From contig OY282383.1 of the NCBI GenBank assembly GCA_958295855.1, forward strand, positions 1,404,481 to 1,468,480: a stretch of 64,000 nucleotides of DNA. Direction: 5' to 3'. Position 1 is the first letter of the stretch; each line of letters begins with the position of its first letter. The notes beneath the pieces are model-generated. The model made no database searches. It was not told where the DNA came from and was given only the letters and a program-made list of their open reading frames with translations. The stretch comes from an uncultured Poribacteria bacterium (lineage in GTDB: Bacteria > Poribacteria > WGA-4E > WGA-3G). Both the position numbers and the translations under genes were made by a program. Positions 5,531 to 63,976 of this stretch are shown here, piece after piece.

Positions 5531-5749
5531 TCAGTTTGTCACTTGTCAGAATAGGGTTAGTGGCATGTTTTGATAAGCCACTGCGTCAATGTTAACTGAG
5601 AACCGATAACTATTGCAAAAAATGTTAAGGGCATTTCGTTCTCCTGTAGGAGGGAGCACCGAATCCCGTTCACAGCAGAGACACGGAGAACACAGAGGTA
5701 CGTGGCGCGTGGCATCGAAAAAACGAAAACTAAATAGCCCTAAAAAATG

Positions 5750-5779
5750 TTGACATTTTTCGACAAACGGAGGTATAAT
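5750..5779 (+). promoter_or_regulatory. near-consensus sigma70-type promoter (TTGACA-18-TATAAT) for rpn
   Basis: TTGACA at 5750-5755 and TATAAT at 5774-5779. The ATG of rpn at 5786 lies about 7 nt downstream of the -10, suggesting a leaderless or very short-leader mRNA. Confidence 0.5.
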
Positions 5780-5785
5780 AGTTGT

Positions 5786-6697: not shown

Positions 6698-6767
6698 AGC
6701 CGCTGCATCGAGAAACGGGGGCGTGATAGTTCGTAGGCGTTGTGCTGAATGTTATCACGCCTCTTGT

Positions 6768-7295
6768 GGTTGTGTAGGGTTGTTGCCTTTCACGCCGTTG
6801 ATGTCAGTGCCTGCGGGTGTGTCTGCTGAGGCGTGGGTAGAAACCTGCGTAGGTGCGGTGCAGTCAGCGTCGGTTGACAAGCAGACGCGTGCGACGCTGT
6901 TGTTTGGTATGTCTGTGCTTGGGAGTTTGGCGCATGCGCCGGAGCTCTTTCAAAAATCAATATCGGAGGACATCATGCAAGAGTCACCCTTTTACCAAGT
7001 GCACTTTGGAAAGGTGATGCAACGAGGGGTTGAACAAGGTATTGAACAAGGTATTGAACAAGGTATTGAACAAGGTATTGAACAAGGTATTGAACAAGGT
7101 ATTGAACGCGGTGCGCGTGAGAATGCCATAGAGAATATTCTCACGGTGCTCACGGCGCGCTTCTCGCAGGACGATGCGCACATCGTGCAGCCAACGCTTG
7201 AAACGATTACCGACCTGCATCGCCTGAAGCAGTTACATCTGTCTGCTGTGCTTGCACCCAATTTTCAAACGTTCCTGCAAACGCTGGAAGCGTAA
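6768..7295 (+). pseudogene. tandem partial duplicate of rpn 3' half (DUF4351 region) with expanded EQGI repeat
   Basis: 6768-7298 is about 95% identical to 6216-6697. The 12-nt unit caaggtattgaa is present six times here versus twice in the parent copy. Confidence 0.6.
7031..7108 (+). repeat. 12-nt tandem repeat (ggtattgaacaa)x6 encoding (EQGI)6
   Basis: Perfect tandem copies are visible in the sequence. Confidence 0.9.
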
Positions 7296-13221: not shown

Positions 13222-13314
13222 CAGGCACGCTCCGCCGTGCCGTTGGCCAAACGAAAGTAGCCGGCACACACCGCCGTGCCGTTAAACCATTTCACGAATT
13301 AGATAGGGGAATTT

Positions 13315-20258: not shown

Positions 20259-20362
20259 TAGGGTAGGCACAAGGCACTACCCCTACTTTTTCAGCACAAA
20301 CCTCTACTGAAATTTGACGTGTGATTCTAGAGGTAAGGGTAGGCACAAGGCACTACCCCTAC
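20259..20362. repeat. two B-family repeats (variant gggtaggcacaaggcactacccctac)
   Basis: Copies at 20259-20287 and 20337-20362. Confidence 0.8.
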
Positions 20363-28949: not shown

Positions 28950-29180
28950 CTAAAAAGGAGCGCGAGTACTTGAAATGATTCCATATTCTTTGCACTTCTC
29001 GATTATTACTTCTTCATTTTTGCAGTTTTCCAGAATGAAGTAATTCTCCTTCAAATCCCTGATCTTGTTAATAGAAATGCTCTTCTGATTCAGGTGTTCA
29101 ATGAGAATCGTCGGAACAAAATATAGTTCAAACGCGTTATCGTCTGAATGTAAGAAATAAAAAAGTTGTTCGCTAGTCAC
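28950..29180 (-). CDS. hypothetical small protein (AT-rich islet); N-terminus contributed by an E-repeat
   Basis: 76-aa ORF at about 35% GC. The first residues MTSEQLFYFL are encoded by the reverse strand of the E element. An upstream ~45-aa ORF at 29319..29185 may be the original 5' part of the same gene. Confidence 0.3.
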   Translation of the reverse strand: MTSEQLFYFLHSDDNAFELYFVPTILIEHLNQKSISINKIRDLKENYFILENCKNEEVIIEKCKEYGIISSTRAPF

Positions 29181-29193
29181 TCACAACTTGGGT
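29142..29193. repeat. E-family element (hairpin aagttgt...acaactt preceded by gtaagaaataaaaa)
   Basis: Read on the opposite strand it is hairpin + TTTTTTATTTCTT, an intrinsic-terminator shape. Confidence 0.7.
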
Positions 29194-29526
29194 GAATCCC
29201 AATGACAACATCTGAGGTTGTAGTGGATTGCGTACGCTGGCAGATGTACAGGAATATCACCATCTACCCGAATAATGCTTTCGCCAAAGTCGTTTATAAT
29301 TTCGGTAATGTTGTCCATGATTTGTTCGTATGTTACCCCTGCTTTGCAGGGGCTAATACCCTTTGCTCAAAACCGATCTGTGCCCCTGTTCTGTCCATTC
29401 CAACACCTTGTTTAGAGGACGCGGTTAGGTGTTGCGCCGCGATGCTGCACAAGAATTGTCCAAACTTCAGTAAATTATAGCACAATTGTCGAAAAAGTGC
29501 AATAATAGTATCAAAGTCTGGCAGGG

Positions 29527-29621
29527 TGGGCAGGCACAAGGCACTGCCCCTACAATGAAAGGTCAACCCAAATTCTGCGGATACGCGGCAGAATAGGCAG
29601 GCACAAGGCACTGCCCCTACA
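29527..29621. repeat. two B-family repeats; the distal one supplies the stop codon of the CPBP gene
   Basis: Copies at 29527-29554 and 29595-29621. The minus-strand stop TAG is the complement of the cta in ccccTAc. Confidence 0.8.
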
Positions 29622-30351
29622 TGATTAGATGTGAAATGCTGACAACTACCACATCCATTGTCATCGCGACGAGCCAGTGAATTGCGGCACCGTAAATAAA
29701 CGAGCGGGTTTCGAGAGCAAGAATCCCGAGCAACACCCCTGCAACAATTGAACCGAGTGCCTCCGGCAAAGGCTTGGAATAGTGCATTACCGCAAATGGG
29801 ATAGTCTGGATGAGGATGCTGTAATTTCCGAATCGCTTTTCTAACCCAAATAGCATGAACCCGCGGAAGAAGAATTCCCATGAAAACATGTAAACCCCGT
29901 ACGCGAGTTGGTACAGAAGGAAGGTTTGCCAACTATTAGCGACTACCTTGCAAAGCGGATACTTTGCGAGGAAGGGCCGATACACTATTACTGCTAAGAT
30001 GACAACCGGAATCATCAGTATCCATGCCGCTAACGTCACACTCCAGCCCAGTTTCTGATTTCCCAACCGAATTCCGTAATCACTCAGCCGCTGTCTTGTT
30101 CCAAATTTAGCAACAAGAGCAGGCACGAGTAACAAGGTGAGTGCGGTTGTCAAAAACCAGTAGTAGTATGAATAGCTTTCTGCCAGCGGGGCGTTTCCGA
30201 AATACTCAGCGAAATGGAGTTGGAAAAAACGCCGCCGGCTATAATATCGGTGCAACGTTAACAGAAGGGCAGAAGCGAGTAAAATTAACGTCGCTTGGCG
30301 TTCCCAACCCTGCAGATATTTTTCTCTTAATGTTTGGAGACGTGAATTCAC
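29617..30351 (-). CDS. CPBP-family intramembrane glutamic endopeptidase (CAAX protease/Abi-like)
   Basis: Motifs WEFFFRG, FAVMH and HWLVAMTMD in TM helices. Confidence 0.65.
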   Translation of the reverse strand: MNSRLQTLREKYLQGWERQATLILLASALLLTLHRYYSRRRFFQLHFAEYFGNAPLAESYSYYYWFLTTALTLLLVPALVAKFGTRQRLSDYGIRLGNQKLGWSVTLAAWILMIPVVILAVIVYRPFLAKYPLCKVVANSWQTFLLYQLAYGVYMFSWEFFFRGFMLFGLEKRFGNYSILIQTIPFAVMHYSKPLPEALGSIVAGVLLGILALETRSFIYGAAIHWLVAMTMDVVVVSISHLIM

Positions 30352-30518: not shown

Positions 30519-31586
30519 ATGGAAGCGGAACGAGTGGGCAGGCACAAGGCACTGCCCCTAGAACAGATTCAGGGCCTCTTAATCATAAGACTGGCTCCGC
30601 TGGGTGAGACAGTTTTGACAACGCCTGTTATTCGTGCCTTGCGAAACCATTTCCCCGACGCGTATATCGCCTACATGGTGGCTCCCACGCGGGAGGATTT
30701 GGTGTCGGCAAACCCGCATCTGAATGAGGTGCTTACTTATCAGCCTTCGGTGCCGAAACTCATCTATCAAATTGCTCGGCGAAAATTCCAAATGGCGGTT
30801 GTGTTGCAACCAACCTTCCGTTTGGTGCTTCACACGTTTCTTGCCCGAATTCCGTTCCGCGTTGGGTTTGAAACGAACACCGGCGGCCGGAAACTGCTGA
30901 GTCTTGCCGTACCAAATAACACTGTTCAGCATGAAGCACAACGCTATCTTGATGTTGTTCGCGCGCTCGGCGTTGAGGCGGTGGATGATGAACCGGAAGT
31001 GTTCGTTAATAACGCGGGAAAAGCATGGGTTGACAACTTTCTCGCAGATTTGAACCTTAATGATAATTGTCCCTTAATCGGACTCAACCCGGGGGCTGCC
31101 ACATCCTACCGCCGGTGGCCGGATGGTAACTTTGCTCTGCTCGGAGACCTGCTTCAGAAAACGTACGACGCGCACATACTCATCACAACGGGCCCCCGGG
31201 AAGGAGAACTCGCATATCATGTGGCAAACCAGATGGCACATTCGCCCATTATTGTTAACAGTACAACACCCATGCAATTGGCCGCTCTCCTGCAACGGTG
31301 TCATCTCTACATCAGCAACGATACGGGACCCATGCACCTCAGTACTGCGGTAAAAACCCCAACGATTGCCTTGTTTGGTGCATCAAACCCAATTCAGTGG
31401 GGGCCACCGTGGGACAAACACACCGTTATTGCGCGCAAGGGGTGTGAGTTTATGAAGACGCTATCGCCCAAGGAGTGGGACGAACATGCCGCGATTGCAC
31501 GCCAGAATTTCGCGGTGCTTACCCCGGACATGGTTATCGCCGCAGTGGAGAAGTTAGAATGGAAAAACTCGAGCGCAACAGACTGA
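30519..31586 (+). CDS. glycosyltransferase family 9 (ADP-heptose:LPS heptosyltransferase-like); 5' end uncertain, a B repeat is embedded in the N-terminal region
   Basis: ILIIRLAPLGETVLTTPVIRAL, with downstream GT9 motifs (GLNPGA, TGPREGE, ISNDTGPMHL). The in-frame B repeat at 30536-30561 encodes GRHKALPL. Confidence 0.7.
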   Translation: MEAERVGRHKALPLEQIQGLLIIRLAPLGETVLTTPVIRALRNHFPDAYIAYMVAPTREDLVSANPHLNEVLTYQPSVPKLIYQIARRKFQMAVVLQPTFRLVLHTFLARIPFRVGFETNTGGRKLLSLAVPNNTVQHEAQRYLDVVRALGVEAVDDEPEVFVNNAGKAWVDNFLADLNLNDNCPLIGLNPGAATSYRRWPDGNFALLGDLLQKTYDAHILITTGPREGELAYHVANQMAHSPIIVNSTTPMQLAALLQRCHLYISNDTGPMHLSTAVKTPTIALFGASNPIQWGPPWDKHTVIARKGCEFMKTLSPKEWDEHAAIARQNFAVLTPDMVIAAVEKLEWKNSSATD

Positions 31587-31660
31587 GGGTGCATACCCCT
31601 GCTGGCAGGGGTAAATACCACTCGCAGAATTCAGATGAACAGTCCATCCAAAATTGTCTA

Positions 31661-33151
31661 ATGGATATCCGAGCTCGAATGCACAGGCAAACCCTCTTGC
31701 AAACGGTGGTGTCAGCTGTCTTTTTTGGACTACTTGTGCTTGCTACCCTGTTTATTGTTGATCGAATAATTCGCCTTCCTATACAGTTGTTTAGTATTAC
31801 TTGCCTAGTCATTTCTGGGGCAATGGTTGTTGGTATCTGCTTCAGTTTCAAACGTCGAAAGGATTTGCGATTTGTGGCGCGAACTGTGGACAGGGACATG
31901 GGGCTCAAGGAACGATTGAGCACGGCGTTTGAATTGATACAGGATGATACCCAAAGCGATTTAGCTCGACTCCAAATTCGAGATGCTGCTGCCACTGTTG
32001 CAACCCTAGCGGTAGCAAAAGTCAGTCCATATCGCATGCCTTTGTTACTGAAAGGGCTTCCAGTTCCGATTCTTTTCATTGCACTTTCTTTCGCGATACC
32101 GCGCTTCTACCACCTGCCGCAACTGCTTACTGCTGCTCAGCAGGAAGTGGTAGATATAGCTGTTGCAAACCTTGAAAAGGTACAGGTTAACAATCAGACG
32201 CTACAGGTGCAAATCCAAGAAACGGTTAAAAAGTTGAAGGAGGCAGAGGATGTTGACACTGCGCAGGCGCACCTCAGCAGTTTGAATAGGGACGTTCGCA
32301 AACAGAAATTGGAGCATAAGGCAGCAATTGAATCTGCTATTACCAAAGCGACACAAGCGACACAACGTTTTGGTGGCATGGATGCCAACCAACTTGCGGC
32401 AGAGTTGGAAGCGGTCATGGAACAACCTGAGATGCCGCCAGAACTCCAAGCTGAACTTGCGGAACTCTTTGCACGCTTGACTGAACGTCTGCCACAGGAT
32501 TCGCTAAGCGATTCACTAACTCAGATTCAGGGGAAGGCAGTTAGCCAAGAAACGTTGCAGGACATTGTTGATGTCCTCCGGCAGGCAGAAAAGTCGATGC
32601 AACTTGCACAACTGGAGGCACAGCTCACGGCAAGCCGAAAGGAATTAGCACTTGCGGGTATTGAAATACAACAAGCTTCGAGCGGGATTGCTAATAGTGA
32701 TGGAGCGCCTGGGCAAAACAGGGGCGATAGCGAAGTGCAAGGCACGCTTGAAGCGGCATCCGATTTTGCGTCGCAGCCAACAACGTCTACAGCCAATGAA
32801 GCGGAAGGTGATATGACAATAGAAGGAGATAACTTTATAGATTCCGGGCAACCCCCGCTAACCGGTGAAACAACCTCACCGTTACAGGTTGGCGGGACAC
32901 AGTTGACGCTCACAACGGAACCTTCACTTGATTCCCAACGCTTTTCGAGAGTTTTCACAGGTGAAGGGCAGGCACAAGGCACTGCCCCTACCGACGCGCC
33001 AGACTATCTTCCCTTCAGCCACGCTGTCCTCAACGCGAAACGCGCGTATGCGCAAGCTATGAACAACAACCGTATTCCGGTGCGGTATCAAACACAGATG
33101 AAAGCCTATTTGGAGGCAATTGCCACGGTTAATGAAAAACAGGGTGACTAA
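31661..33151 (+). CDS. hypothetical membrane-anchored coiled-coil protein
   Basis: Two N-terminal TM helices followed by a long Q/E/A-rich coiled coil. The start was chosen at MDIRARMH. An in-frame B repeat at 32965-32991 encodes GQAQGTAPT. Confidence 0.5.
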   Translation: MDIRARMHRQTLLQTVVSAVFFGLLVLATLFIVDRIIRLPIQLFSITCLVISGAMVVGICFSFKRRKDLRFVARTVDRDMGLKERLSTAFELIQDDTQSDLARLQIRDAAATVATLAVAKVSPYRMPLLLKGLPVPILFIALSFAIPRFYHLPQLLTAAQQEVVDIAVANLEKVQVNNQTLQVQIQETVKKLKEAEDVDTAQAHLSSLNRDVRKQKLEHKAAIESAITKATQATQRFGGMDANQLAAELEAVMEQPEMPPELQAELAELFARLTERLPQDSLSDSLTQIQGKAVSQETLQDIVDVLRQAEKSMQLAQLEAQLTASRKELALAGIEIQQASSGIANSDGAPGQNRGDSEVQGTLEAASDFASQPTTSTANEAEGDMTIEGDNFIDSGQPPLTGETTSPLQVGGTQLTLTTEPSLDSQRFSRVFTGEGQAQGTAPTDAPDYLPFSHAVLNAKRAYAQAMNNNRIPVRYQTQMKAYLEAIATVNEKQGD

Positions 33152-37251: not shown

Positions 37252-37355
37252 GAATGCACGTCGCATAAGTAAGAAATAAAAAAGTTGCTTGCTAATCACG
37301 CGCAACTTGGGCGCAGTGGTATATTACCCCTGCAAAGCAGGGGAAACTGATACCA
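37252..37355. repeat. composite E (GC-stem variant) + A hairpin
   Basis: gaatgcacgtcgcataagtaagaaataaaaaagttgcttgctaatcacgcgcaacttgggcgca is 65 nt identical to 61301-61365. It is followed by cccctgcaaagcagggg. Confidence 0.8.
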
Positions 37356-45099: not shown

Positions 45100-46071
45100 T
45101 TGAAAATGGATATAGCCCTAGAGGGGTTGAACAACGTGGAAACTTTTTATAGCTTAGACGATGTCCCCGAATTCGGCAGGCACTCGGCAGTCACCTTTGG
45201 CGTGTTTGATGGGATTCATATTGGCCACCAATCGGTTATCAATATGCTTCTCAAGGAGGCTGCGCAAAATAAGTTGATGAGCCTCCTGGTTGGTTTCTAT
45301 CCACATCCTCTGGCGTTTCTTGCCCCGGAACGCTGCCCACCTATCCTGATGCCGCTTGCCAAGCGCATCGAAATCCTTGAGCAACTTGGTATTGATAAAA
45401 CTGTCATTCTGAGTTTTGATGCGGAGATTGCCTCCATGTCACCTGAGACGTTTGTAAAGCGCGTGCTATTGGAAAAGTGTCGCGCCAAGCATGTGGTTGT
45501 TGGATATGCCTGTCAGTTTGGGAAGGACCGGGCAGGCAATGCACAAAGTTTACAGGAACTTAGCCGGTCTCGTTCGTTTCATGTCTCAATTGTTCCACCT
45601 ACAGAAATAAACGGTGCCCCTGTACATAGTACACGTATCCGCGAAGCCCTCGCGAGGGGGGATCTTCAATGGAGTTCGCAATTATTGGGGCGTCCCTATT
45701 CCCTTGTTGGCGATGTGGTTCGCGGTGACGGCAGAGGTAGACACCTCGGCTTTCCAACCGCGAATATAGAGACTCAAGATCAAATTTGTCCTCCGAATGG
45801 GGTGTACGCGATTCGCGCCAAACTGGAGGGGCGGTGGTTAGATGGCGTATTAAACATCGGAATACGTCCCACATTTAACGCGCTGAATTTTCAGGTAGAA
45901 AGTCACTTTTTTGACTTTGATGAAACTATCTATGGGAAATCGGTAGAAATCTTTTTTGTAGAGAAAATTAGGGGCGAACGGAAGTTTCCGAATCTTGAAT
46001 CTTTGATTCAACAGATACAACGGGATATCGCTGTTGCGTCTGAGATTCTGGCAGAGTCAGTTTGCATTTGA
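45100..46071 (+). CDS. ribF: bifunctional riboflavin kinase / FAD synthetase
   Basis: GVFDGIHIGHQ FAD-synthetase motif and a C-terminal riboflavin kinase (GRxLGFPTAN). Confidence 0.85.
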   Translation: MKMDIALEGLNNVETFYSLDDVPEFGRHSAVTFGVFDGIHIGHQSVINMLLKEAAQNKLMSLLVGFYPHPLAFLAPERCPPILMPLAKRIEILEQLGIDKTVILSFDAEIASMSPETFVKRVLLEKCRAKHVVVGYACQFGKDRAGNAQSLQELSRSRSFHVSIVPPTEINGAPVHSTRIREALARGDLQWSSQLLGRPYSLVGDVVRGDGRGRHLGFPTANIETQDQICPPNGVYAIRAKLEGRWLDGVLNIGIRPTFNALNFQVESHFFDFDETIYGKSVEIFFVEKIRGERKFPNLESLIQQIQRDIAVASEILAESVCI

Positions 46072-46226
46072 GCTAGAGAACGCGCCAGGGGTTGCGCGCC
46101 TAGAAACCCTGCGTCATCCGTGGCTTAGCCAATCATGCGCGCCTTTTATTTCTTGTGTCCAATCCCCCCACAAAACGGATAACTGCAGACCGAAAACTGA
46201 ATACCTCTAACTATCCTCAGTTTAAT

Positions 46227-50436: not shown

Positions 50437-50506
50437 AGGGCAGGCACAAGGCACTGCCCCTCCTACGAACCCGCTGAAATGCACGGCGCATAAGTAAGAA
50501 ATAAAA
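50437..50506. repeat. B repeat + partial E element
   Basis: gggcaggcacaaggcactgcccc ... gcgcataagtaagaaataaaaaaa. Confidence 0.7.
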
Positions 50507-51578: not shown

Positions 51579-51588
51579 ATGTGCCCTA

Positions 51589-51746
51589 ATGTAAAAAATA
51601 AAAAAGTTGTTCATTAAAATTCACAACTTGGGTAGGCACAAGGCCTACCGCTACAATGGAAACCGTATGCGCTTTAACAAATATAAGAAATAAAAAAGTT
51701 GTTCATTAAAATTCACAACTTGGGTAGGCATAAGGCCTACCCCTAC
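51589..51746. repeat. two tandem E + B-variant composite units
   Basis: (gtaaaaaataaaaaagttgttcattaaaattcacaacttgg + gtaggcacaaggcctac) x2, with a period of about 90 nt. Confidence 0.8.
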
Positions 51747-51781: not shown

Positions 51782-51885
51782 TGGTATTTGCCCCTGCAAG
51801 CAGGGGTTATGGTTCTTAGTGTCTAGTGGTACGCAGTAAACCTCGGCAACCCTTGCTATGGCACACGGAGTGTGCCTGCTACTAT
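51782..51885. repeat. A hairpin + C-family palindrome upstream of amidohydrolase gene
   Basis: tggtatttgcccctgcaagcagggg ... ccttgctatggcacacggagtgtgcctgctact. Confidence 0.75.
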
Positions 51886-51909: not shown

Positions 51910-52692
51910 ATGCGTGGCGATTTTGAAGCCTATCTCAATGATTCATTTCGTGATGAAAATGGAAGGCTGGATTTAGCGGCATTATTAACATTGGAAGATG
52001 AAGCCGCCATGGATGTAGCAGTCATCATGCCCAATACCCAACCCGATCCGCAAAATGATGAACTTGCCGATGCTATTCGCGGAAACCCGCGTGCCCTCGG
52101 CTGCGCGCTCGTGCATCCGACAGAACCAGAACCGGTTGAACAAGTCAAGTTGGCGGCGGAGGTGTGGGGAATGCGCGGTATTAAGCTCATGCCTGCTGTT
52201 CACAACTACAATGTGGACGACCCCATCGTACGCCCTGTCGTTGAATCCGCACGTGACTATGGACTTATCGTTTCAATTCACTCCGGACCTAACAATTGCC
52301 ATCCCAACCGCATCGGCACCGTTGCAAGTTGGGTGCCAGAAACGCCTGTCATCATGGATCACATGGGGTTTCCTGATGACTTAGATGCTGCCATCTCTGT
52401 AGCCAAGGCAAACAAGAATATCTCACTTGGAACGACTATCTTACGTTTTCATCGCCGCTGGGGGACGGATGCAAACACCGTTGTTCCTACAGAGGTAAAA
52501 GATGCAGTGGATGCGCTCGGCCCGGAACAGATCGTCTTTGGCTCTAATTTGCCGGAATACCGTCCTATTCAGGTGATTAATGCCCTCAAGCGGTTGGAAC
52601 TCGGCGATGATGCAGAGGCACTAATTTTCGGCGATAACCTCGCGCGCATCTATGGATTAGAAGGTTTTTCGTCATTCCTTGCGGAGAATTGA
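51910..52692 (+). CDS. amidohydrolase-2 (TIM-barrel metal-dependent hydrolase) family protein; C-terminal 8 aa and stop encoded by a D repeat
   Basis: HxH-less amidohydrolase_2 pattern (MDHMGFPD, FGSNLPE). The protein ends GFSSFLAEN*, read from tttttcgtcattccttgcggagaattga. Confidence 0.6.
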   Translation: MRGDFEAYLNDSFRDENGRLDLAALLTLEDEAAMDVAVIMPNTQPDPQNDELADAIRGNPRALGCALVHPTEPEPVEQVKLAAEVWGMRGIKLMPAVHNYNVDDPIVRPVVESARDYGLIVSIHSGPNNCHPNRIGTVASWVPETPVIMDHMGFPDDLDAAISVAKANKNISLGTTILRFHRRWGTDANTVVPTEVKDAVDALGPEQIVFGSNLPEYRPIQVINALKRLELGDDAEALIFGDNLARIYGLEGFSSFLAEN

Positions 52693-52925
52693 GAATGCTT
52701 GGTAGGTCTGGCAATGTACTGTAGCTCTCGTCGGAGGTTTTTGACGCAAGGTTTTTTAACTTTCCTTGCGGAGAATTGAGAATGCAAGATAGCTCTTACC
52801 ATTCTTTGTAGCTCTCGTCGGAGGTTTTTGACGCAAGGTTTTTTAACTTTCCTTGCGGAGAATTGAGAATGCAAGATAGCTCTTACAATTCTTTGTAGCT
52901 CTCGTCGGAGGTTTTTGACGCAAAG
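52667..52925. repeat. three tandem D-family elements (period ~88 nt)
   Basis: D1 52667-52751, D2 52761-52839 and D3 52848-52925. The minus-strand ORF 52650..52874 in the track is an artefact of this array. Confidence 0.85.
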
Positions 52926-52953
52926 TTTACGTTACGTTTAAAATGGTGGCAAA

Positions 52954-54063
52954 ATGAAAAGAACGCCCCTTTATGAGGTTCACAAAGCCCTCAACGCCAA
53001 ATTTACCCAATTCGGTGGATGGGACATGCCGCTCCAATATAGCAGTATTGTTGAGGAGCATCTGGCTGTCCGAACCACTGCTGGTTTGTTTGACTTGTCG
53101 CACATGGGTGAGATTGAGGTCTGCGGACACGGGGCGAACGAGTTGGTGCAAAAACTCAGCACCAACGACGTGAACCGTTTAACCGATGGGCGTGTGTTGT
53201 ATACACTCCTTTGTAAGGAGACAGGCGGAATAGTTGATGATATTCTCATTTACCGCCGCGCCGATAACTACTATATGCTGGTTGTCAATGCTGCCAACAT
53301 TGAAAAAGATCTGGCATGGGTGGAAGCCCATAATGACGAGGGCGCGGAAGTAAGAGATGTAAGCGAGGATACAACCCTCATCGCGCTACAGGGGCCCGCA
53401 GCGATGGACATTCTGCGTCCCTTGGCTTGCTATGGCACACGGAGTGTGCCTGCTACTTTTGGGTTTGCTAGCGGCGAGGTAGCAGGTATCCCGACCGTGA
53501 TTTCACGAACCGGTTACACGGGGGAAGTCGGTTTTGAGTTGTATGTAAACGCGCGTTTGAATAAATGGGGTGCAAAACGTTTGTGGGATACGCTTTATCC
53601 TATAGTGACGGCGGCGGGCGGGCAACCTGTCGGACTTGGTGCACGCGACACACTACGACTTGAAGCTGGACTTCGCCTCTACGGCATGGACATGGACGAA
53701 AGCACGACACCGTTTGAAGTTGGGCTTGGTAGGTTTGTCAAATTTAAGAACCGGCAATTTATCGGCAAGGCTGCACTTCTTGCACAGAAACGGAAGGGAG
53801 CTCTTGCGAGGCAGATGGTAGGATTTCAGATGCTTGGCCGCGCGGTCGCGCGTGCTGGCCATCCTGTCTATCAAAAAGGTGAACACATAGGCGCTGTGAC
53901 GAGCGGTGCGCCTTCACCGAGTCTTAAATGCAATATCGGCTTTGCCTCCGTCGAAAGCAGTAGGCGGGCAGGCACAAGGCACTGCCCCTACAATGAAAAC
54001 ATCGATGTAGAAATTCGTGGGAAGATGCACCCTGCGAAAATCGTAGAAATTCCTTTTTTATAG
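52954..54063 (+). CDS. gcvT: glycine cleavage system aminomethyltransferase T, carrying in-frame C-repeat and B-repeat insertions
   Basis: GcvT motifs throughout. Inserts: ACYGTRSVPATFGF (C repeat, 53425-53460) and [11 protein letters not shown] (B repeat, 53966-53991). Confidence 0.85.
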   Translation: MKRTPLYEVHKALNAKFTQFGGWDMPLQYSSIVEEHLAVRTTAGLFDLSHMGEIEVCGHGANELVQKLSTNDVNRLTDGRVLYTLLCKETGGIVDDILIYRRADNYYMLVVNAANIEKDLAWVEAHNDEGAEVRDVSEDTTLIALQGPAAMDILRPLACYGTRSVPATFGFASGEVAGIPTVISRTGYTGEVGFELYVNARLNKWGAKRLWDTLYPIVTAAGGQPVGLGARDTLRLEAGLRLYGMDMDESTTPFEVGLGRFVKFKNRQFIGKAALLAQKRKGALARQMVGFQMLGRAVARAGHPVYQKGEHIGAVTSGAPSPSLKCNIGFASVESSRRAGTRHCPYNENIDVEIRGKMHPAKIVEIPFL

Positions 54064-54066
54064 ATT

Positions 54067-54228
54067 TCGTCTTTCCTTGCGGAGAATTCAAGTGGCAAGA
54101 TAGGTCTGACGTTGCACTGTAGATGTCGTCGGAGGTTTGTGCTGCAAGAAAAAAGAGGTTTGAATGCAGGTCGCATAAGTAAGAAATAAAAAAGTTGTTC
54201 ATTAAAATTCACAACTTGGGTATGAACA
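54067..54228. repeat. D element followed by E element
   Basis: tcgtctttccttgcggagaattcaag...gtcgtcggaggtttgtgctgcaag ... gcataagtaagaaataaaaaagttgttcattaaaattcacaacttggg. Confidence 0.8.
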
Positions 54229-54254: not shown

Positions 54255-55993
54255 ATGAAACACAACTCGTCTCTGATGAAGGGCTTTATGGTATTACTCT
54301 CCCGGCCTTCGGAGACCGGGGGTATAAAACTTTTATTGTCTTTCCTAATTTTGGGACTTCTCATTTCGATCTCACGTCCAGAGGTTTACTCACAGACAGT
54401 TTCCGAAAGAGCCTCAGCATCTACAGTACGATTGGTCGCGTTTTTCGGTGGGGGTAGCGGGTTTTTCGTGGCACCAGACAAAATTGCAACGAATTTTCAC
54501 GTCGCCGCATCTGTCGAAAGGGGTCCGATTTTCGCAAAAGTGGTTGACAACGAGACTATCTGGGCAGTAGAAGGTGTCATGGCATTTGACGTTAAGAACG
54601 ACCTCGCCATCCTAAAAATCGCAGGGGCCGGCACGCCGCTTCCTATTGGTGACAGTGATATGCTCCAAATAGGGTTCGGTGCAGTGGCGTAAAATGTAAT
54701 CAAATCTATACAAATGTAATCAAATCTATCTGAAAGAGGTAGTCTTATCTGACAGATACAGAGGATGGTGAATGGAGCGTGAGTAGCGTTTCCTACTGCA
54801 CGATGCGAAGTGGCACGCTGAACAGGCCTACCCCCCGTGAAAAAGGTATTTACCCTGCAAAGCAGGGCGAATACCACCTGCGGATGAAGAGTTGGCAATG
54901 CGACTGCAGAAAGGTATTATCCCCGCTTTGCGGGGTAAATACCGATGCCGACGGTGGAGGTGGCGATAAGACCTACGTGAGACCCCTAGCCAACAACGTC
55001 TCACTACAGCATCAGAGACGACACGAACAATCGTTACGACACGTCGCGGACAGCTTAGCCGAGACGTCAAACGCCTGTGGATGCTATGTAAGCCCTACAC
55101 TGGTAGGCGATGGCAGATGAAGCAGGAAGTGTGGCAACTGATGGAAGAACCTGTTAGATTTGAACAGGTTTGACTAGAAATGTATAAGTCCCACAGAGCG
55201 GGAGTCTGTTTATTTGGCGGGTTACCCTTATCTAGGAAAATATAGGGTTACGGAGGGCATTATAGAGGATATCCGGCAGAGCGATAAATGGATACGGACG
55301 ACAACCGAAGCGTATCCGGGAAACAGCGGCGGTCCCGTGCTAAACAGTAAAGGGGAAGTCATTGGTATTCACGTCGGCCACGGCTATGACGCGCGTCCCT
55401 CAAACGCGCTCAAGGCATTGCTTGCTGCTTCTACGTCTACAGAGCCCTTAGCACAGTGGCAGAAACGTGCACTTGTTCGGGCGTATGTCTACGTCAAACG
55501 AGGCAGAAGAAAATATGATGATGGGGACGCTGCTGGGGCAATTACTGACTTGGATAAAGCGATCAAACTTAACCCGAACGATGCCGAAGCCTACAAATAT
55601 AGAGCGAAGGCAAAGGCGAAACTTGGCAACCTTGTAGGAGCGATAGCGGACTATAATCAAGCGATTAAACTTAAATCTGATGATGACTATGCTTATAGTC
55701 ACCGTGGAATGGCAAAGTCTGAACTTGGTGACCATGATGGTGCGATAGACGATCACGACAAAGCCATTCGACTCAGCCCTAAAAGTGCCTATTTCTACAA
55801 TAATCGCGGAGAAGCAAAGCGTTCCGTAGGCGATTATGCAGGGGCAGTAGAGGACTATAATCAAGCCATCAAACTAAATCCTAAGTATTCCACTGCTTAC
55901 TACCATCGCGGGCTTGCAAAGGAGGCACTTGGGCAGCAGGCGGCAGCGAAAATTGATTTTGAGAAGGCAAAGGCTTCCTTGCCCGGCCCGTGA
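54255..55993 (+). pseudogene. trypsin-like (S1) serine protease fused to TPR repeats, interrupted by a ~520-bp insertion
   Basis: His (TNFHV) and Asp (NDLAIL) lie in the 5' ORF 54255-54692. Ser (GNSGGP) plus about six TPR units lie in the 3' ORF 55214-55993. The two parts are in different frames. Confidence 0.6.
54693..55213. mobile_element. ~520-bp non-coding insertion flanked by 5-bp direct repeat TGGCG (target-site duplication) inside S1 protease gene
   Basis: gcagTGGCG|taaaatg ... gtttattTGGCG|ggttaccc. Removal restores ...IGFGAVAGYPYLGKY..., a protease-consensus junction. The insert contains two A hairpins and a 17-nt direct repeat, and has no ORF with a recognisable motif. Confidence 0.55.
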
Positions 55994-56005: not shown

Positions 56006-56395
56006 ATGTTTCCACAAAACTTAAAATACATGGAAAGCCATGAATGGGCTAGGCAAGAAGGTGACATCGCTACTATCGGTATCAGCGACTATGCCCAATC
56101 CGAAATTCAGGATATTGTCTACGTCGAATTGCCTGAAGTTGGCACTGAAGTCGTACAGCAGACAGAGTTCGGGGTGATAGAGTCTGTGAAAGCGGCATTT
56201 GATCTCTACGCCCCTGTCAGTGGGGAAGTCATTGCTGTCAACGAATCACTCCTTGATGCCCCGGAACAGGTCAATGAGTCTCCGTACGATAAGGGCTGGT
56301 TGCTCAAAATCAAAATGGTGGCCTTGGACGAACTTGACGTGCTTCTTGATGCCGATAGTTATCGTCATTCCTTGCGGAGTAATCAGAACGTATGA
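56006..56395 (+). CDS. gcvH: glycine cleavage system H protein; last ~11 aa and stop contributed by a D repeat
   Basis: Lipoyl-lysine motif ESVKAA. C-terminus ...YRHSLRSNQNV* is read from cgtcattccttgcggagtaatcagaacgtatga. Confidence 0.85.
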   Translation: MFPQNLKYMESHEWARQEGDIATIGISDYAQSEIQDIVYVELPEVGTEVVQQTEFGVIESVKAAFDLYAPVSGEVIAVNESLLDAPEQVNESPYDKGWLLKIKMVALDELDVLLDADSYRHSLRSNQNV

Positions 56396-56461: not shown

Positions 56462-59431
56462 TTGGAAAATTCTTTCTTCTATCGACACATAGGTCCGCGT
56501 CCAGAAGACATTGAGTTGATGTTAACAACGCTCGGTTATTCGTCAATGGCATCTTTTATTGAAGACGTTGTGCCGGCAGATATTCGTCTAGCATCTCCCC
56601 TCAGTTTATATGTTGCCCACTCTCCCGATTCCGATGGGGAGAGGAAGGGTAGGCACAAGGCACTGCCCCTACCAGAATTTGAAATGCGGGCAGCCTTGGC
56701 GCAGCTTGCTTCTCAGAACCAGATCTACCGTTCCTTTATCGGCATGGGCTACGCTAACTGCATCGTGCCGCCGGTCATCCAACGAAACATCCTTGAGAAT
56801 CCCGGATGGTATACCCAATACACTCCCTATCAAGCCGAAATTTCACAGGGCCGCTTAGAAGCATTGCTAAACTTCCAAACAATGGTTATTGACTTAACCG
56901 GGCTCCCTATTGCTAATGCTTCCCTCCTAGACGAAGCAACAGCCGCCGCTGAAGCCATGGGAATGTGCATCGCAAGAGGGCAGGCACAAGGCACTGCCCC
57001 TACCGAGCAACAGACAGGTTTCCGTAACTTCTTTGTTTCAGAAACCTGTCATCCACAAACAATTGCCGTTTTGCAAACGCGTGCCGAACCTCTCGGGATT
57101 CAATTAGACATTGGTAACCATCAAAACGTGGATTTCGAGGCACCTATCTTGGGAGCTATCGCGCAATACCCGGCTACGGATGGTGCAGTTTACGATTACC
57201 ACGAGTTCGCCAAACGGGTGCATGCCGCTGGTGGCTTATTTGCTATTGCCACGGACCTATTAGCACTGACACTCCTGAAACCGCCTGGTGAGGTTGGTGC
57301 GGACATCGCTATCGGCAGTGCCCAAAGGTTTGGTGTCCCCCTCGGCTACGGAGGGCCCCACGCTGCGTTTCTCTCTACGCGCGAGGAACTCAAACGCCGA
57401 ATACCCGGACGGATTGCAGGGGTTTCTCAAGATGCAACGGGCAAACCTGCCATCCGCTTGGCACTCCAAACGCGAGAGCAACATATCCGGCGTGAAAAAG
57501 CGACCAGCAACATCTGCACAGCGCAAGTACTCCTCGCTGTCATGGCAGGGATGTATGCAGTCTATCACGGGCCCACGGGGCTTAAGCGAATTGCGGAACG
57601 CATCCAGAAACTCACCAACACCCTACGCACAGGGCTTGAGAAATTGGGTTACTCTACTGGGGATGCGCCTTGCTTTGATACGGTTCGGGTAGGGGTTTGC
57701 TACGGAAACCCACGGAGTGTGCCTGCTACTTTTGCTGCGGAACTGCTGGCTGCTGCACGGGCGAGAGGGATAAATCTTCGCGCGATTGGGGCAGGCACAA
57801 GGCACTACCCCTACAACATCGGGATATCGCTGGACGAAACAACGACGCTGGGGGATGTTGAGGAGTTGCTTGGTATTTTTGAGGATGCGAGGGATTTTCG
57901 GTGTAGTAGGGATGTTTGCTACGGAAACCCACGGAGTGTGCCTGCTACTTTACAACGAAAAACGCCCTATCTGACCCATCCTGTTTTCAATAGTTACCAC
58001 TCTGAAACCGAGATGCTTAGGTATATCCACAGACTCCAAACTAAAGATCTCTCCTTAGTCAACGCTATGATACCGCTCGGTTCCTGTACCATGAAACTCA
58101 ATGCTACGGCAGAGATGGTGCCGGTAACATGGCCAGGGTTCAGCGAGCTTCACCCATTCGCACCGCAGGAGCAAGCATCCGGTTACCACGTTCTGTTTGA
58201 ACAACTGGAGGCGTGGTTAGCGGAGATAACGGGATATGGGGGTATCTCATTGCAACCGAATGCTGGCTCACAGGGCGAATATGCGGGGCTGTTAGTCATC
58301 CGCAAATACCACCAAAGCCAAAACGAAGCCCATCGCAATGTCTGCTTAATACCCACATCTGCTCACGGTACAAACCCTGCCAGTGCAGTCATGGCGGGGA
58401 TGAAAGTCATCGTCGTTGCATGCGACACAGAAGGCAACGTTGACCTGGTGGATCTACGGAAGAAAGCTGAGCGTTATAGTGAAACCCTCGCCGCTGCCAT
58501 GGTTACTTATCCTTCAACACATGGTGTATTTGAAGAACAGATTCGCGAGATATGCGATATCGTTCATCAATATGGTGGGCAAGTCTACATGGACGGTGCC
58601 AATCTCAATGCACTCGTTGGACTCAGTCGTCCAGCAGATATCGGCCCTGATGTGTGCCATCTCAACCTCCACAAAACGTTCTGCATCCCCCATGGTGGCG
58701 GTGGCCCGGGGATGGGGCCTATTGGAGTCAAGGCACATCTAACCGATTTTTTACCGACGCATCCACTCGTCACCGTTGGGGGTAAGTCTGGAATCGGTGC
58801 TGTTTCAGCGGCCCCGTGGGGGAGCCCCGGGATTTTACCTATTTCTTGGGCGTATATTGCGATGATGGGAGCAGAGGGGCTCAAATCGGCGACAGAGGTT
58901 GCTATTCTCAACGCCAACTACATCTCCAAACAGTTAGCCCCCCACTATCCGATCCTTTACACAGGTAGGAAGGGGTTAGTTGCCCACGAATGTATTGTAG
59001 ATCTGCGTCCCTTTAAGAGAACGGCTGATGTAGATGTAACCGATGTTGCAAAACGGTTGATGGATTATGGGTTTCACGCACCAACTGTATCCTGGCCGGT
59101 TCCCGGAACAATGATGATTGAACCCACAGAGAGTGAATCTAGAACTGAACTAGATCGGTTCTGCGCTGCGCTTGTTGCGATCCGCTCTGAGATTGCCGAG
59201 ATTGAGACAGGGAAAGCAGATGGACGAGACAACGTTCTCAAAAATGCACCTCACACCGTAGAAACGGTCACGCAAACAGATTGGCCCCACTCCTACTCGC
59301 GCGAAAAGGCTGTGTTTCCAAAGCCTTGGGTGCGCGATGCTAAGTTTTGGCCTGCGGTGGCACGTATTAATGAAGTCTACGGGGACAGGAATCTTTTGTG
59401 TGCCTGTCCACCCCTTGATGACTATTTTTAG
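56462..59431 (+). CDS. gcvP: glycine dehydrogenase (decarboxylating), single-chain P protein, with five in-frame repeat insertions
   Basis: Full-length GcvP motifs. Inserts:
- B at 56646-56672 (GRHKALPLP)
- B at 56977-57000 (GQAQGTAPT)
- C at 57694-57733 ([12 protein letters not shown])
- B at 57788-57816 ([10 protein letters not shown])
- C at 57914-57951 ([13 protein letters not shown])
Start codon likely TTG at 56462. Confidence 0.85.
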
Positions 59432-59594
59432 TCGTTCCTTGCGGAGAAATGAGAATGCAAGACATGTCTGACAATGCCTTATAGATCTCGTCGGAGGTTT
59501 CTGACGCATTTTTGTTATTCCTTGCGGAGTAATCAGGTTGCAGGATAGTTCTGACGTTGCACTGTAGATGTCGTCGGAGGGTTGTGCTGCAAGG
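59432..59594. repeat. two adjacent D-family repeats immediately after the gcvP stop
   Basis: Copies at 59432-59509 and 59514-59594. Confidence 0.8.
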
Positions 59595-59595
59595 C

Positions 59596-59676
59596 CTACC
59601 TAAGAGTCCTCTGACGAGATTTCTAATAGATTTCTAACTACAGCGGAAAGCATGGTACTCCGCAAGGTATGTTAAA
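59596..59676 (+). repeat. G element: conserved ~85-nt leader shared by trkA and trkH
   Basis: taagagtcctctgacgagat...aactacagcggaaagcatggtactccgcaaggtatgttaaaaa. The second copy is at 61457-61540. Both end about 5-20 nt before the start codon. Confidence 0.6.
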
Positions 59677-59679: not shown

Positions 59680-61095
59680 ATGAAAGCAATAATCATAGGG
59701 GCGGGGGAGGTGGGTTTTCATACAGCGAAACTGCTAACTACCGAAGCGAACGATGTCGTTCTCATCGATGAATCCGTTGAAGCCTGCAACCGAGTCAGTG
59801 AACAATTAGATTTGCAGACTTTACGCGGTTCTGGTGCCTCCCCGCGTCTTCTCAAAACAGCCGGTATTGACGAGGCTGGGCTCCTCATTGCGGTTACGAA
59901 CAGCGATGAAATTAACATGCTTGCTTGTCAGATAGCTGACCGGTACAGCGTTGGCACCAAGATTGCGCGCGTCTCAAATACTGACTACTTTTCATCTGGA
60001 AGCGGACTCACGCCCAAGGATTTCGGCATAGACCTCTTGGTTAATCCTGAACAGCTTTGTGTAGCCGAATTTGTTCGCCTTTTAAAGATACCTGAAGCGA
60101 AAGAGATTGTTGAATTTGAGGGAGGCACGGTACAACTTGTCTCTTTTCGCATCAAAAAGACTAACCCCTTGGTTGGAAAATCTCTTGCTGAGTTAGATAA
60201 CAGTGGACTTTTAGCCGATATTCGATTTGCCGCAATTAGCAGGCGAGGGGGTGGTTTAACGGCACGGCGGAGCGTGCCTACTACTTTCGCAAACAGGTAC
60301 ATTATCATTCCTAGAGGCACAGATATTTTGGAACAAGGAGATGATGTATTCGTTATTGGTAGCGCGTTGGCAGTCGAACAGTTGCTGCGCCTGAACGGAA
60401 TCATGTTTAACGAATACCTTGACCGGGTCATTATTGTTGGTGCGAGCCCCATCGGCATCCAACTCGCCCGCACCCTAGAACAAAACAACACTGATGTTAA
60501 ACTCATTGAAGCCAGTCAAGAGCGGGCAGAATTGGCCTCGCGGCTCTTGAAACGGACGACTGTCTTACACGGCGACTATCTCCAATTCAGGCTTCTTGAG
60601 GAAGCAGGAGTCCTTGATGTGAACGGGTTTGTCTCTGTCACAGGTGACGATGAAAACGATATTATGGCGTGCATGACAGCGAAAGAGAACGGTGCACAGC
60701 GCGCCCTCGCCCTGATTCAGCAGCCACGCTACCTGCCGCTGTTGGCACGGATTCCACGGCTTGATGGGGTAGTCAGTCGGCACCTCTCCGTGGTCAGCAA
60801 CATCCTCCGGCTCATTCGCCGTGGGAATATTGTTTCTGTTGCGTCGCTCCATGGCATAGATGCAGAAGTTATTGAAATTGTCGCAGGTATCAACGCGAAA
60901 ATTGTTCACAAGGAGCTTCTGTCATTCAAAACGAAATTTCCAGAAAACGCTTTTATTGGTGCAGTCCTCCGGCGCGACAAACTCATTATTCCGAACGGGC
61001 AGTCTGTTATCCAACCCGCAGATCGTGTTATTGTCTTTAGTATGCCTGATGCAATTCCTATTGTGGAAGATCTGTTCGCGGAACGCAGAATATAG
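59680..61095 (+). CDS. trkA: Trk potassium uptake system NAD-binding protein TrkA (two RCK-N/RCK-C pairs) with in-frame C-repeat insertion
   Basis: GAGEVG and GASPIG Rossmann motifs. Insert GGLTARRSVPTTFAN at 60253-60290 sits in the first RCK_C, just before the IIPRGTD strand. Confidence 0.85.
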   Translation: MKAIIIGAGEVGFHTAKLLTTEANDVVLIDESVEACNRVSEQLDLQTLRGSGASPRLLKTAGIDEAGLLIAVTNSDEINMLACQIADRYSVGTKIARVSNTDYFSSGSGLTPKDFGIDLLVNPEQLCVAEFVRLLKIPEAKEIVEFEGGTVQLVSFRIKKTNPLVGKSLAELDNSGLLADIRFAAISRRGGGLTARRSVPTTFANRYIIIPRGTDILEQGDDVFVIGSALAVEQLLRLNGIMFNEYLDRVIIVGASPIGIQLARTLEQNNTDVKLIEASQERAELASRLLKRTTVLHGDYLQFRLLEEAGVLDVNGFVSVTGDDENDIMACMTAKENGAQRALALIQQPRYLPLLARIPRLDGVVSRHLSVVSNILRLIRRGNIVSVASLHGIDAEVIEIVAGINAKIVHKELLSFKTKFPENAFIGAVLRRDKLIIPNGQSVIQPADRVIVFSMPDAIPIVEDLFAERRI

Positions 61096-61111
61096 GCATG
61101 GGATTCGTGGC

Positions 61112-61196
61112 TTTTCGTCATTCCTTGCGGAGAATTGAGAATGCTTGGTAGGTCTGGCAATGTACTGTAGATCTCGTCGGAGGTTTCTGATGCAAC
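61112..61196. repeat. D-family repeat
   Basis: ttttcgtcattccttgcggagaattgagaatgcttggtaggtctggcaatgtactgtagatctcgtcggaggtttctgatgcaa. Confidence 0.8.
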
Positions 61197-61252
61197 CTCA
61201 ATTAGGAGGAAGTACTCTACAACTTGTAAGAACCCCGATTTTGAGACAAAGT

Positions 61253-61400
61253 AAATACCCCGCAAAGCGGGGCGAATCCCACCGCGGAAAACTCGGAGCA
61301 GAATGCACGTCGCATAAGTAAGAAATAAAAAAGTTGCTTGCTAATCACGCGCAACTTGGGCGCAAAGGGTGTTAGCCCCCGCTTTGCGGGGGATATCACC
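61253..61400. repeat. A variant + E (GC-stem variant) + A variant
   Basis: ccccgcaaagcgggg ... gcataagtaagaaataaaaaagttgcttgctaatcacgcgcaacttggg ... cccccgctttgcggggg. Confidence 0.75.
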
Positions 61401-63077: not shown

Positions 63078-63243
63078 TTTTCGTCATTCCTTGCGGAGAA
63101 ATCAGCAAATGTAAGAAATAAAAAAGTTGTTCATTAAAATTCACAACTTGGTATGAAACCCCTGCTTTGCAGGGGCAAATACCATTGGCAAGAGAGGTCT
63201 AACAATGCACTATAAATCTCGTCGGAGGTTTTTGACGCAAGGT
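63078..63243. repeat. composite nested repeat D-left + E + A + D-right (same architecture as 3563-3737)
   Basis: tcgtcattccttgcggagaaatcagcaaatgtaagaaataaaaaagttgttcattaaaattcacaacttgg ... cccctgctttgcaggggcaaataccattggca ... tctcgtcggaggtttttgacgcaagg. Confidence 0.85.
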
Positions 63244-63280
63244 TACAGAATAAATGCCAAGGGAGGCACCGCTCTACTTT

Positions 63281-63976
63281 ATGAACACTGATAAACTGCG
63301 CAGAGAATACATAGCACACAGCGGACACCTGCTTGAGCAGCATGCCGCCCCCGAACCATTTGAACAGTTTGAGAAGTGGTTCGCTGATGCGACCCGGGCC
63401 AAACTCGATCTACCGGATGCAATGACATTGGCAACCTCGAGCCTACAGGGAATTCCCTCTGCCCGCATGGTAGTGCTCAGAGGCTTTGATGCAAAAGGTT
63501 TCTGTTTTTATACAGACTATGAGAGCCAAAAGGGAAAGGAGCTCGTGCAGAACCCGAACGCCGCGCTCGTCTTCTATTGGCGTGAACTTGACCGGCAGGT
63601 GCGAAGCACCGGCATCGTTGAAAAAATGAGCGAGGCGGAATCAGATGCCTATTTCGCCAGCCGCCCGGTTGAGAGTCAACTCGCAGTGTGGGCAGAACGC
63701 CAAAGCCGCGTTATCGCAGGACGAGAACACCTTACGGAAGGCTTCAGGCAGGCAGAACAGACCTATTCACCTGATTTGCCTATCAGCTCAACTCAATATC
63801 AGAATGTAGAAGCACGAATTGATAGTCAAATTCCACGGCCACCTTATTGGGGTGGCTACCGGCTCGTACCCAATCTGTTTGAATTTTGGCAGGGATGTCC
63901 AAACCGACTCCACGACCGGCTCTGTTACACGCTGCAACCCTCAGGCACGTGGGAAATGACGCGCCTGTCGCCGTGA
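63281..63976 (+). CDS. pdxH: pyridoxamine 5'-phosphate oxidase
   Basis: RMVVLRGFD, FYTDYESQKG, RQVRSTG and P--WGGYRL motifs. Confidence 0.85.
   Translation: MNTDKLRREYIAHSGHLLEQHAAPEPFEQFEKWFADATRAKLDLPDAMTLATSSLQGIPSARMVVLRGFDAKGFCFYTDYESQKGKELVQNPNAALVFYWRELDRQVRSTGIVEKMSEAESDAYFASRPVESQLAVWAERQSRVIAGREHLTEGFRQAEQTYSPDLPISSTQYQNVEARIDSQIPRPPYWGGYRLVPNLFEFWQGCPNRLHDRLCYTLQPSGTWEMTRLSP

Follow-up and report, generated by a model that had tools for sequence, protein, structure and literature searches.

GTAG-tagged palindromic repeats read in frame within gcvP, gcvT and trkA of a Poribacteria bacterium

The locus and its two repeat families

The region considered here is a 64-kb stretch of contig OY282383.1 from an uncultured Poribacteria bacterium (the window, below), in which gcvT, gcvP and trkA, together with a coiled-coil open reading frame (ORF), carry within their coding sequences copies of two families of short palindromic repeats that we call B and C (Table 1). 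The alignment of GcvP with solved P-proteins, among them those of Synechocystis and human, extends from end to end (E=0), that of GcvT spans its full length (2.6e-94), and TrkA matches the Pfam domains TrkA_N and TrkA_C. The nearest database relatives of this GcvP are named Candidatus Poribacteria, and a contig scan of genomes returned none above 77% GcvP identity. Two syntenic contigs served as comparators: L001, which is 95.6% identical to the window in nucleotides (synonymous divergence, dS, of about 0.08), and L002, whose proteins are about 86-89% identical to those of the window; for GcvP, 13 further Poribacteria sequences were also taken in. The census of B and C copies reported below covered these 64 kb, and the search for a transposase gene covered them and L001.

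The core of B is 26 nt long (GGGCAGGCACAAGGCACTGCCCCTAC) and occurs 12 times in the window, against none in shuffled sequences; as first read, 11 of these 12 copies lie on the plus strand. The core of C is TGCTAY-GGCACAC-GGA-GTGTGCC-TGCTAC, and there is a variant, C2, with the core GGCACG-GCGGAG-CGTGCC, the two amounting to seven copies where none is expected by chance. Because the opposite-strand reading (GTAG-GGGCAG-T-GC-CTTGT-GC-CTGCCC for B and GTAG-CA-GGCACAC-TCC-GTGTGCC-ATAGCA for C) gives a GTAG that stays unpaired and then a G+C-rich stem-loop, both elements are GTAG-tagged REPs (repetitive extragenic palindromes), that is, members of an already described superfamily and not new kinds of element. 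Folded as DNA, B shows the unpaired GTAG and then a stem of 6+2 bp (-7.7 kcal/mol, z -3.3), and in C a 2-nt spacer separates GTAG from a 7-bp stem with a 3-nt loop, at energies of -7.4 kcal/mol (z -3.5) for C1, -6.5 for C2 and -1.4 for the C variant of gcvP, in which the stem is lost. A generic scan for GTAG plus hairpin finds 14 of the 19 B and C copies. The GTAG end (CTAC on the strand first read) is present in all of them but the one at 30536, which ends in CTAG, and the B copies at 20261 and 20337 have compensatory stem variants (GGGTAG/CTACCC). Rfam gave zero matches over the whole window, and searches of the literature on REPs or miniature inverted-repeat transposable elements in Poribacteria brought up nothing of relevance. 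The peptides and DNA of B and C, sought in the supplements of the GTAG REP survey of Di Nocera, De Gregorio and Rocco (2013, BMC Genomics 14:522; PMC3733652), gave no match there, and no numbered GTAG family was assigned.

Nine of the 19 copies lie within long ORFs and ten are extragenic, three of the latter donating a TAG stop to a neighbouring gene, in line with GTAG-tagged REPs, whose many dispersed copies stand mostly near 3' ends of ORFs. As for coding sequence, gcvP holds three B and two C copies, gcvT one of either family, trkA a single C2 and the coiled-coil ORF a single B, as the initial annotation had it; the insert that it also placed in a heptosyltransferase gene is not supported, the ORF meant being most likely the Elm1-like one, where the B copy lies between the stop of the preceding ORF and the probable ATG and is therefore no in-frame insert. 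Its statement that B occurs inside ORFs in all three frames was correct, with five coding copies giving three peptide readings: GQAQGTAPT (56978 and 32966), GRHKALPL (56647) and AGTRH(C/Y)PY (53966 and 57789).

All nine coding copies share one orientation, with GTAG antisense. So oriented, B is free of stops in three of three frames, and in the reverse orientation two of three frames are open for B and one of three for C; the single orientation is therefore largely explained by stop codons that close frames in the other one. The cumulative GC skew climbs monotonically along 1-64000 and the plus strand carries about 80% of the genes, so that REP orientation relative to replication and relative to transcription is inseparable here. 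Five copies within gcvP compare with about 0.9 expected from 19 copies per 64 kb (Poisson P ~0.002, in a test picked post hoc); the earlier claim of five hits in a single essential gene stands as to the five copies, the essentiality of GcvP being unsupported. Every copy in the window is a singleton or belongs to a direct pair (20261/20337, 29528/29595, 13218/13257), and inverted doublets of the kind known as REPINs (REP doublets forming hairpins) were not seen among them. The C copy at 51854 is probably located in the 5' leader of an amidohydrolase gene.

Table 1. Genes carrying B, C or C2 and positions of the copies in the window. For repeats, the strand is the one carrying GTAG, and coding copies are therefore listed as (-).
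Feature	Position	Strand	Remarks
gcvP, glycine dehydrogenase, 989 aa	56462-59431	+	Intact ORF; PLP (pyridoxal phosphate)-lysine motif HLNLHKTF kept
gcvP #1, B	56647-56672	-	Encodes GRHKALPL; absent from L001, with a 30-nt gap exactly at the copy
gcvP #2, B	56978-57003	-	Encodes GQAQGTAPT; present in L001
gcvP #3, C	57695-57732	-	Encodes (V) + 12 residues; hairpin-dead variant
gcvP #4, B	57789-57814	-	Encodes AGTRHYPY; absent from L001, L002 and all other orthologs
gcvP #5, C	57914-57951	-	In hypervariable linker between the protein halves
gcvT, aminomethyltransferase, 369 aa	52954-54063	+	Intact; two REP copies
C in gcvT	53425-53459	-	Encodes ACYGTRSVPATF; the C core itself at 53428-53456
B in gcvT	53966-53991	-	Encodes AGTRHCPY; 9-aa/27-nt gap in L002
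trkA, 471 aa	59680-61095	+	Intact; holds a single REP copy in the first RCK_C hairpin loop
C2 in trkA	60253-60289	-	Encodes GLTARRSVPTTF; absent from L001 and L002
B in 558-aa coiled-coil/membrane ORF (31475-33151)	32966-32991	-	Encodes GQAQGTAPT
B, GTAG-sense	2272-2297	+	Its TAG is the stop of ORF 1490-2275; upstream of likely ATG 2391 of Elm1-like gene
Two C2 in tandem	13218-13281	+	TAG of the first is the stop of ORF 11248-13221
Two intergenic B	20261-20362	-	GGGTAG...CTACCC compensatory stem variant
Two B, direct pair	29528-29620	-	Second GTAG gives the stop of the minus-strand Rce1-like gene 29617-30351
Intergenic B	30536-30561	-	The 3' end of ORF 30579-30941 (minus strand) is 18 nt away
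Intergenic B	50438-50463	-	Common to L001
C	51854-51882	-	Upstream of probable amidohydrolase start
Two shorter B-like REPs	51631-51654 and 51722-51746		Near the C copy at 51854

Insertion, replacement and the age of the copies

Alignment of GcvP, GcvT and TrkA with their orthologs, which had been suggested as a check, places the additional or changed residues exactly at the repeat copies. The copies gcvP #1, gcvP #4 and that of trkA are absent from L001, and gcvP #3, present in L001, is absent from L002; because such close relatives lack some of them, the copies are recent and polymorphic. An assembly artefact was considered and rejected: L001, an independent assembly, holds the same copies at the sites it shares with the window.

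It had been claimed that each copy lands where homologous proteins have no residues. This is so for gcvP #1 (+30 nt), gcvP #2 (+27 nt) and the B copy of gcvT (+27 nt), which as clean additions make up about three of the eight copies tested; at the gcvP #2 site, the gap of 9 aa (27 nt) is clean in all 14 other aligned orthologs. It is not so for the C copy of gcvT, for trkA or for gcvP #3, #4 and #5, in which native sequence, 8-32 nt of it, was overwritten. In gcvT, the C copy brings no net change in length, and the native VPKQDVSEIPYFR, a segment with counterparts in the GcvT of B. subtilis and T. maritima, is replaced codon for codon by ACYGTRSVPATFG. In trkA, a unit of 37 nt yields a net gain of only +9 nt (+3 aa); both L001 and L002 keep the native 12-residue loop (S/N)VNNGEPP(T/N)N(V/A)N, in place of which the window has GGLTARRSVPTTFA. 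For gcvP #4, the net gain is +18 nt with about 8 nt of native sequence (IDSSHV) replaced, and for gcvP #3 it is +24 nt relative to L002 for a shared unit of 38 nt. The view of the copies as tolerated, added loops is thus sound with respect to tolerance in frame, and does not fit most copies, which replace native nucleotides and are not clean additions.

Net length changes are multiples of three in every case and the ORFs are uninterrupted, in agreement with the claim that the frame is kept. The unit lengths themselves are not multiples of three, and no target-site duplication is visible at the filled and empty sites compared. The elements do not match a miniature inverted-repeat transposable element, with its terminal inverted repeats and target-site duplication: no duplication shows in any filled-versus-empty comparison, and each unit consists of a single hairpin throughout. 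No motif shared by the deletion end-points was seen at the empty sites of trkA, gcvP #1 and gcvP #4. The sequence shared between copies, flanks included, is 30-38 nt long and exceeds the net gain in five or six cases, and therefore 3-32 nt of target sequence were lost in these. For trkA and gcvP #4, which are younger than dS 0.08, a single-step insertion with target loss is more parsimonious.

The copy gcvP #5 brings no net length gain relative to the Synechocystis or human P-protein. It is identical over 38 nt to gcvP #3, which lies 219 nt away, while L001 has at the #5 site a variant that is 3 nt shorter and retains an intact stem; for this reason the sequences suggest that #5 in the window took on the hairpin-dead sequence of #3 by gene conversion. 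This observation bears on a broader alternative, in which all copies would be written in from other copies, through template switching or gene conversion over a short patch that replaces a stretch of similar length, and not by a transposase, their spread being a by-product of recombination or replication. In keeping with it, native sequence was replaced in the C copy of gcvT, in trkA and in gcvP #4 as described above, flanks of variable length are shared beyond the core, no target-site duplication is seen, and a longer repeat (family A, below) overwrote the last nine codons of gcvH at nearly equal length. The B copy of gcvT and the intergenic copy at 29525-29560 have about 36 nt in common (35 of 36 identical), and the C2 copy of trkA is near-identical to the copies at 13213-13288. 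However, clean additions, of +27 or +30 nt, account for three or four copies, the gcvT and trkA sites show no flanking homology by which conversion could be guided, and the sites compared only with L002 could reflect an insertion followed by a later in-frame deletion, and we therefore regard conversion as an unlikely general source of the copies.

A related proposal, to which we give little credence, is that REPs enter genes by patch replacement, the unit of 26-38 nt overwriting a similar length of target in one step; candidate mechanisms would be a RayT enzyme (REP-associated tyrosine transposase) cutting the target twice, or template switching at the hairpin. Were it true, the B hairpin, shared across phyla and stop-free in three frames one way, would be an element adapted to coding sequence, and the window and L001 would form a natural pair of before and after alleles for REP dissemination.

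We also considered that the motifs were built up by point mutation under molecular drive, in the manner of uptake-signal sequences, with no insertion at all. The C copy of gcvT and gcvP #5, which change no length, would accord with this, but gaps of 18-30 nt are found in orthologs exactly at the copies, and in the gcvT patch about 25 of 33 positions differ in a gene otherwise about 86% identical at the protein level, a change that is not stepwise; this explanation has next to no chance of being right.

The genes themselves are intact. GcvP, GcvT and TrkA are complete, and gcvP and trkA are under purifying selection: the ratio of nonsynonymous to synonymous substitution rates (dN/dS), taken from the comparison of the window with L001, comes to 0.17 in gcvP and 0.22 in trkA, compared with 0.12 and 0.17 for their REP-free neighbours trkH and PNPase. 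The initial annotation had named frameshifts as the sign that these would be degraded pseudogenes, and none is present in the window genes. A reading of the repeats as marks of decay could point to the nearby S1-protease/TPR gene, split by a 527-nt insert (54675-55201), and to the 1-nt frameshift of gcvT in L001; nevertheless, the gcvP, gcvT and trkA ORFs of the window are full length with conserved motifs, and all net length changes are multiples of three, which together with the dN/dS values led us to reject decay for these three genes as wholly improbable. The gcvT gene of L001 (8276-9413) is called as two ORFs because a run of G residues that lies 22 nt downstream of the C copy (window equivalent 53478) is longer by one, the cause being a true frameshift or else a mistake in the assembly.

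It could also be asked whether the hairpins are kept for a role as nucleic acid, for example in the stability or processing of gcvTHP-trkA transcripts, as sites of translational pausing, or in the binding of gyrase or nucleoid proteins, the peptides being a by-product. Ten of the 19 copies cluster within 8.5 kb of the gcv-trk region, stem variants are compensatory or G-T compatible, one orientation is common to all nine coding copies, and PMC3733652 argues that many REPs act as RNA elements. Set against this, the copies are polymorphic between genomes at dS 0.08, both C copies of gcvP have lost the hairpin, B is found, across many taxa, in genes and at positions that bear no relation to one another, and the shared orientation is largely accounted for by stops; such a role is, in our judgement, improbable as the reason for their retention.

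At the gcvP #1 site, other Poribacteria have a 12-aa insert, GRSLQAHIAKSE (L003 10160-10195, L004 645-680, L005 10163-10198). It is 36 nt long with the GTAG plus hairpin shape (GTAG-CTTGCAA-GCCCATA-TTGCAAG), and cannot be called a repeat because it occurs once per 22-kb locus. At GcvP site 3, sequences P0096 and P0082 have a tandem EVASPVN insert.

Copies in other organisms and relation to known palindromes

An exact 25-mer of B is present in more than 120 metagenome contigs with GC contents of 0.32-0.72 and differing flanks, none of which bears the other repeat family of the window. In these, B is found in frame in a HhH-GPD glycosylase, in cyanobacterial LdpA (as two tandem copies), in a phosphoglucomutase (PGM/PMM), in an SdhB-like protein, in a GT2 glycosyltransferase and in shikimate dehydrogenase, the last copy being in reverse orientation and encoding RRGSALCLP. 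B often stands tail-to-tail with a related REP, ACCCTTGTGGTCGCCC. In the HIP1-rich contigs L094 (Phormidium-like) and L195, the ORF of a 168-aa Y1_Tnp protein has its end at the TAG of a B copy; the protein is 99% identical to a transposase of Phormidium sp., its homologs are named 'REP element-mobilizing transposase RayT', and two related GTAG REPs lie upstream of its gene (L094 3522-4292, flanking REPs GTAGGGGCGAACCCTTGTGGTCGCCC). A further contig with a GC of 0.32 (L129 1-500) has a RayT gene with B itself in frame (GQAQGTAPT). As for C, in another Poribacteria species (L008) it is an ordinary extragenic REP just downstream of gcvT.

Hairpins of 21-27 nt that insert without target duplication into repeats, and occasionally into genes, are said to be found in heterocyst-forming cyanobacteria, namely the small dispersed repeats (SDRs) of which Elhai et al. 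wrote in Genome Res. in 2008; their sequences reportedly differ from those of B and C.

We consider it likely that B and C, as GTAG-tagged REPs of 26-38 nt, proliferated in a Poribacteria lineage and are tolerated in frame in functional genes. REP copies would be generated throughout the genome, presumably mobilised by a HUH enzyme of the RayT/TnpA_REP type acting on single-stranded hairpins, by analogy with TnpA_REP of E. coli (PMC8266576). The integration event itself may remove adjacent target nucleotides, the alternative being that a deletion brought back the frame or the loop length afterwards. Selection would then purge coding insertions that break the frame, add a stop or disturb a constrained region, and the survivors would be those with a net change in multiples of three, free of stops in the occupied frame and placed at a permissive, length-variable site, such as GcvP sites 1-4 and the inter-domain linker or the RCK_C hairpin loop of TrkA, with the encoded 8-13 residues translated as part of the protein.

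Several observations weigh against this account. The net gains of 0, +9, +18 and +24 nt are below the unit lengths of 26-38 nt, where simple insertion predicts otherwise, and both C copies of gcvP are unable to form the hairpin, yet they are retained. Singletons and direct pairs in the window are unlike the inverted REPIN doublets thought to be mobile in Pseudomonas, and no RayT or Y1_Tnp gene was detected within the 64-kb window or L001. In addition, the AlphaFold model of GcvP, obtained with a 16-sequence alignment, is too poor for use, with a mean predicted local distance difference test (pLDDT) score of 36.7, and the placement of the copies in loops is taken from indel positions relative to the structures 4LGL and 6I33.

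The closest known counterparts are the GTAG REPs surveyed in PMC3733652 in Cyanobacteria, Chloroflexi and the Planctomycetes-Verrucomicrobia-Chlamydiae (PVC) group. That survey describes some REPs that fall completely within the genes of known proteins, in Opitutus terrae above all, with some genes hit twice, and GTAG termini that often give neighbouring genes their TAG stops. B and C resemble these in the unpaired GTAG and the G+C-rich stem-loop of 6-9 bp, in a size of 20-40 bp, in their multiple copies, in the additional residues within genes and in the donation of TAG. They differ in that the host, Poribacteria, is a lineage outside that survey; that single units are found here, the intragenic inserts already published being dimers or groups in more than half of the cases; that five copies in one 3-kb gene are a very high density; that metabolic and transport genes are involved, in place of the replication and repair genes emphasised there; and that native residues are replaced, which the survey does not describe.

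The in-frame copies had initially been equated with the phenomenon of the Rickettsia palindromic elements (RPEs). As reported by Ogata et al. (2000), cited here through PMC10969869, RPEs are palindromes in frame in unrelated conserved genes that remain open, with several families per genome, and these traits are shared by B and C, which behave as selfish palindromes tolerated in frame according to their polymorphism, intact ORFs and dN/dS of 0.17-0.22. On the other hand, the RPEs originally reported are about 150 bp long (PMC10969869) and are described as additions, whereas B and C are GTAG-tagged, occupy 26-38 nt and mostly overwrite host nucleotides, and the Poribacteria host is free-living or sponge-associated and not obligate intracellular. 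The shorter intragenic RPE-4 and RPE-6 of R. conorii are CGTC-type REPs, according to PMC3733652. The case of the window works like that of RPEs, outside those families, which are defined as being of roughly 100-150 bp and specific to Rickettsia.

With the REP/REPIN-RAYT systems of E. coli and Pseudomonas (PMC3116915, PMC8266576), B and C have in common the GTAG plus hairpin and an association with a Y1 HUH transposase (PF01797), exact B abutting such a gene in L094 and L195; unlike them, classical REPs are almost wholly extragenic and an inverted doublet is the proposed mobile unit. According to PMC8266576, the way in which REPs are disseminated is yet to be settled.

Intragenic GTAG REPs and RPEs being already known, no new principle is claimed here; what is new is the host phylum, the density of five copies in 3 kb, the pairs of filled and empty alleles, the pattern of replacement and the identity of B across taxa. 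The alleles are recent and can be compared at single-nucleotide resolution with the ancestral gene sequence known, and they indicate that REP integration often deletes target nucleotides without duplication. One REP of 25 nt is identical across organisms of 32-72% GC and decorates housekeeping enzymes in many of them, and in the annotation of metagenomes peptides such as AGTRHCPY should be taken as REP read-through and not as protein motifs.

Other repeats and neighbouring genes

A third family, A, of about 87 nt and containing TCATTCCTTGCGGAG...CTCGTCGGAGGTTTCTGA, fills most intergenic spacers of the window and forms tandem arrays (56359-56395 at the end of gcvH, 52653-52930, 59413-59599, 61099-61202 and 63078-63244). 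The last nine gcvH codons, QARIEAEHA in the native form of L002, read RHSLRSNQNV in the window and in L001 where A overwrote them, and in L001 an A repeat also lengthens the C-terminus of gcvT (RRSLRSNQNV). A dispersed family of 45 nt, AATGTAAGAAATAAAAAAGTTGTTC....CACAACTTGG, has eight copies, all intergenic and often adjoining a hairpin family, GCCCCTGCTTTGCAGGGG (3592-3636, 29147-29191, 37266-37310, 51588-51724, 54176-54220, 61315-61359 and 63108-63152).

The stretch between gcvT and gcvH encodes an S1 serine protease that has TPR repeats (54255-55993); its gene is intact with 558 aa in L002 and wholly absent from L001. The insert that splits it in the window contains other hairpin repeats, e.g., GGTATTTACCCTGCAAAGCAGGGCGAATACC, and a further 19-aa insert is in frame in its signal-peptide region. 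The pyridoxamine-phosphate oxidase gene differs from that of L001 by a 57-nt in-frame insertion at 63773-63829 (DLPISSTQYQNVEARIDSQ) and by 27 nt at its start (63251-63277), neither of them similar to B or C. An IS605 OrfB/TnpB-like (Cas12f-like) gene adjoins rpsO in L001 (1-1039) and is absent at the syntenic site of the window (~46000-46130).

ORFs without a Pfam match hold long direct repeats at 4426-5150, 5747-7295 and 8641-10041, which measure 212-300 nt, are 72-98% identical and stand 513-684 nt apart; four of the five pairs are 94-98% identical, and the ORFs appear to encode proteins with internal repeats.

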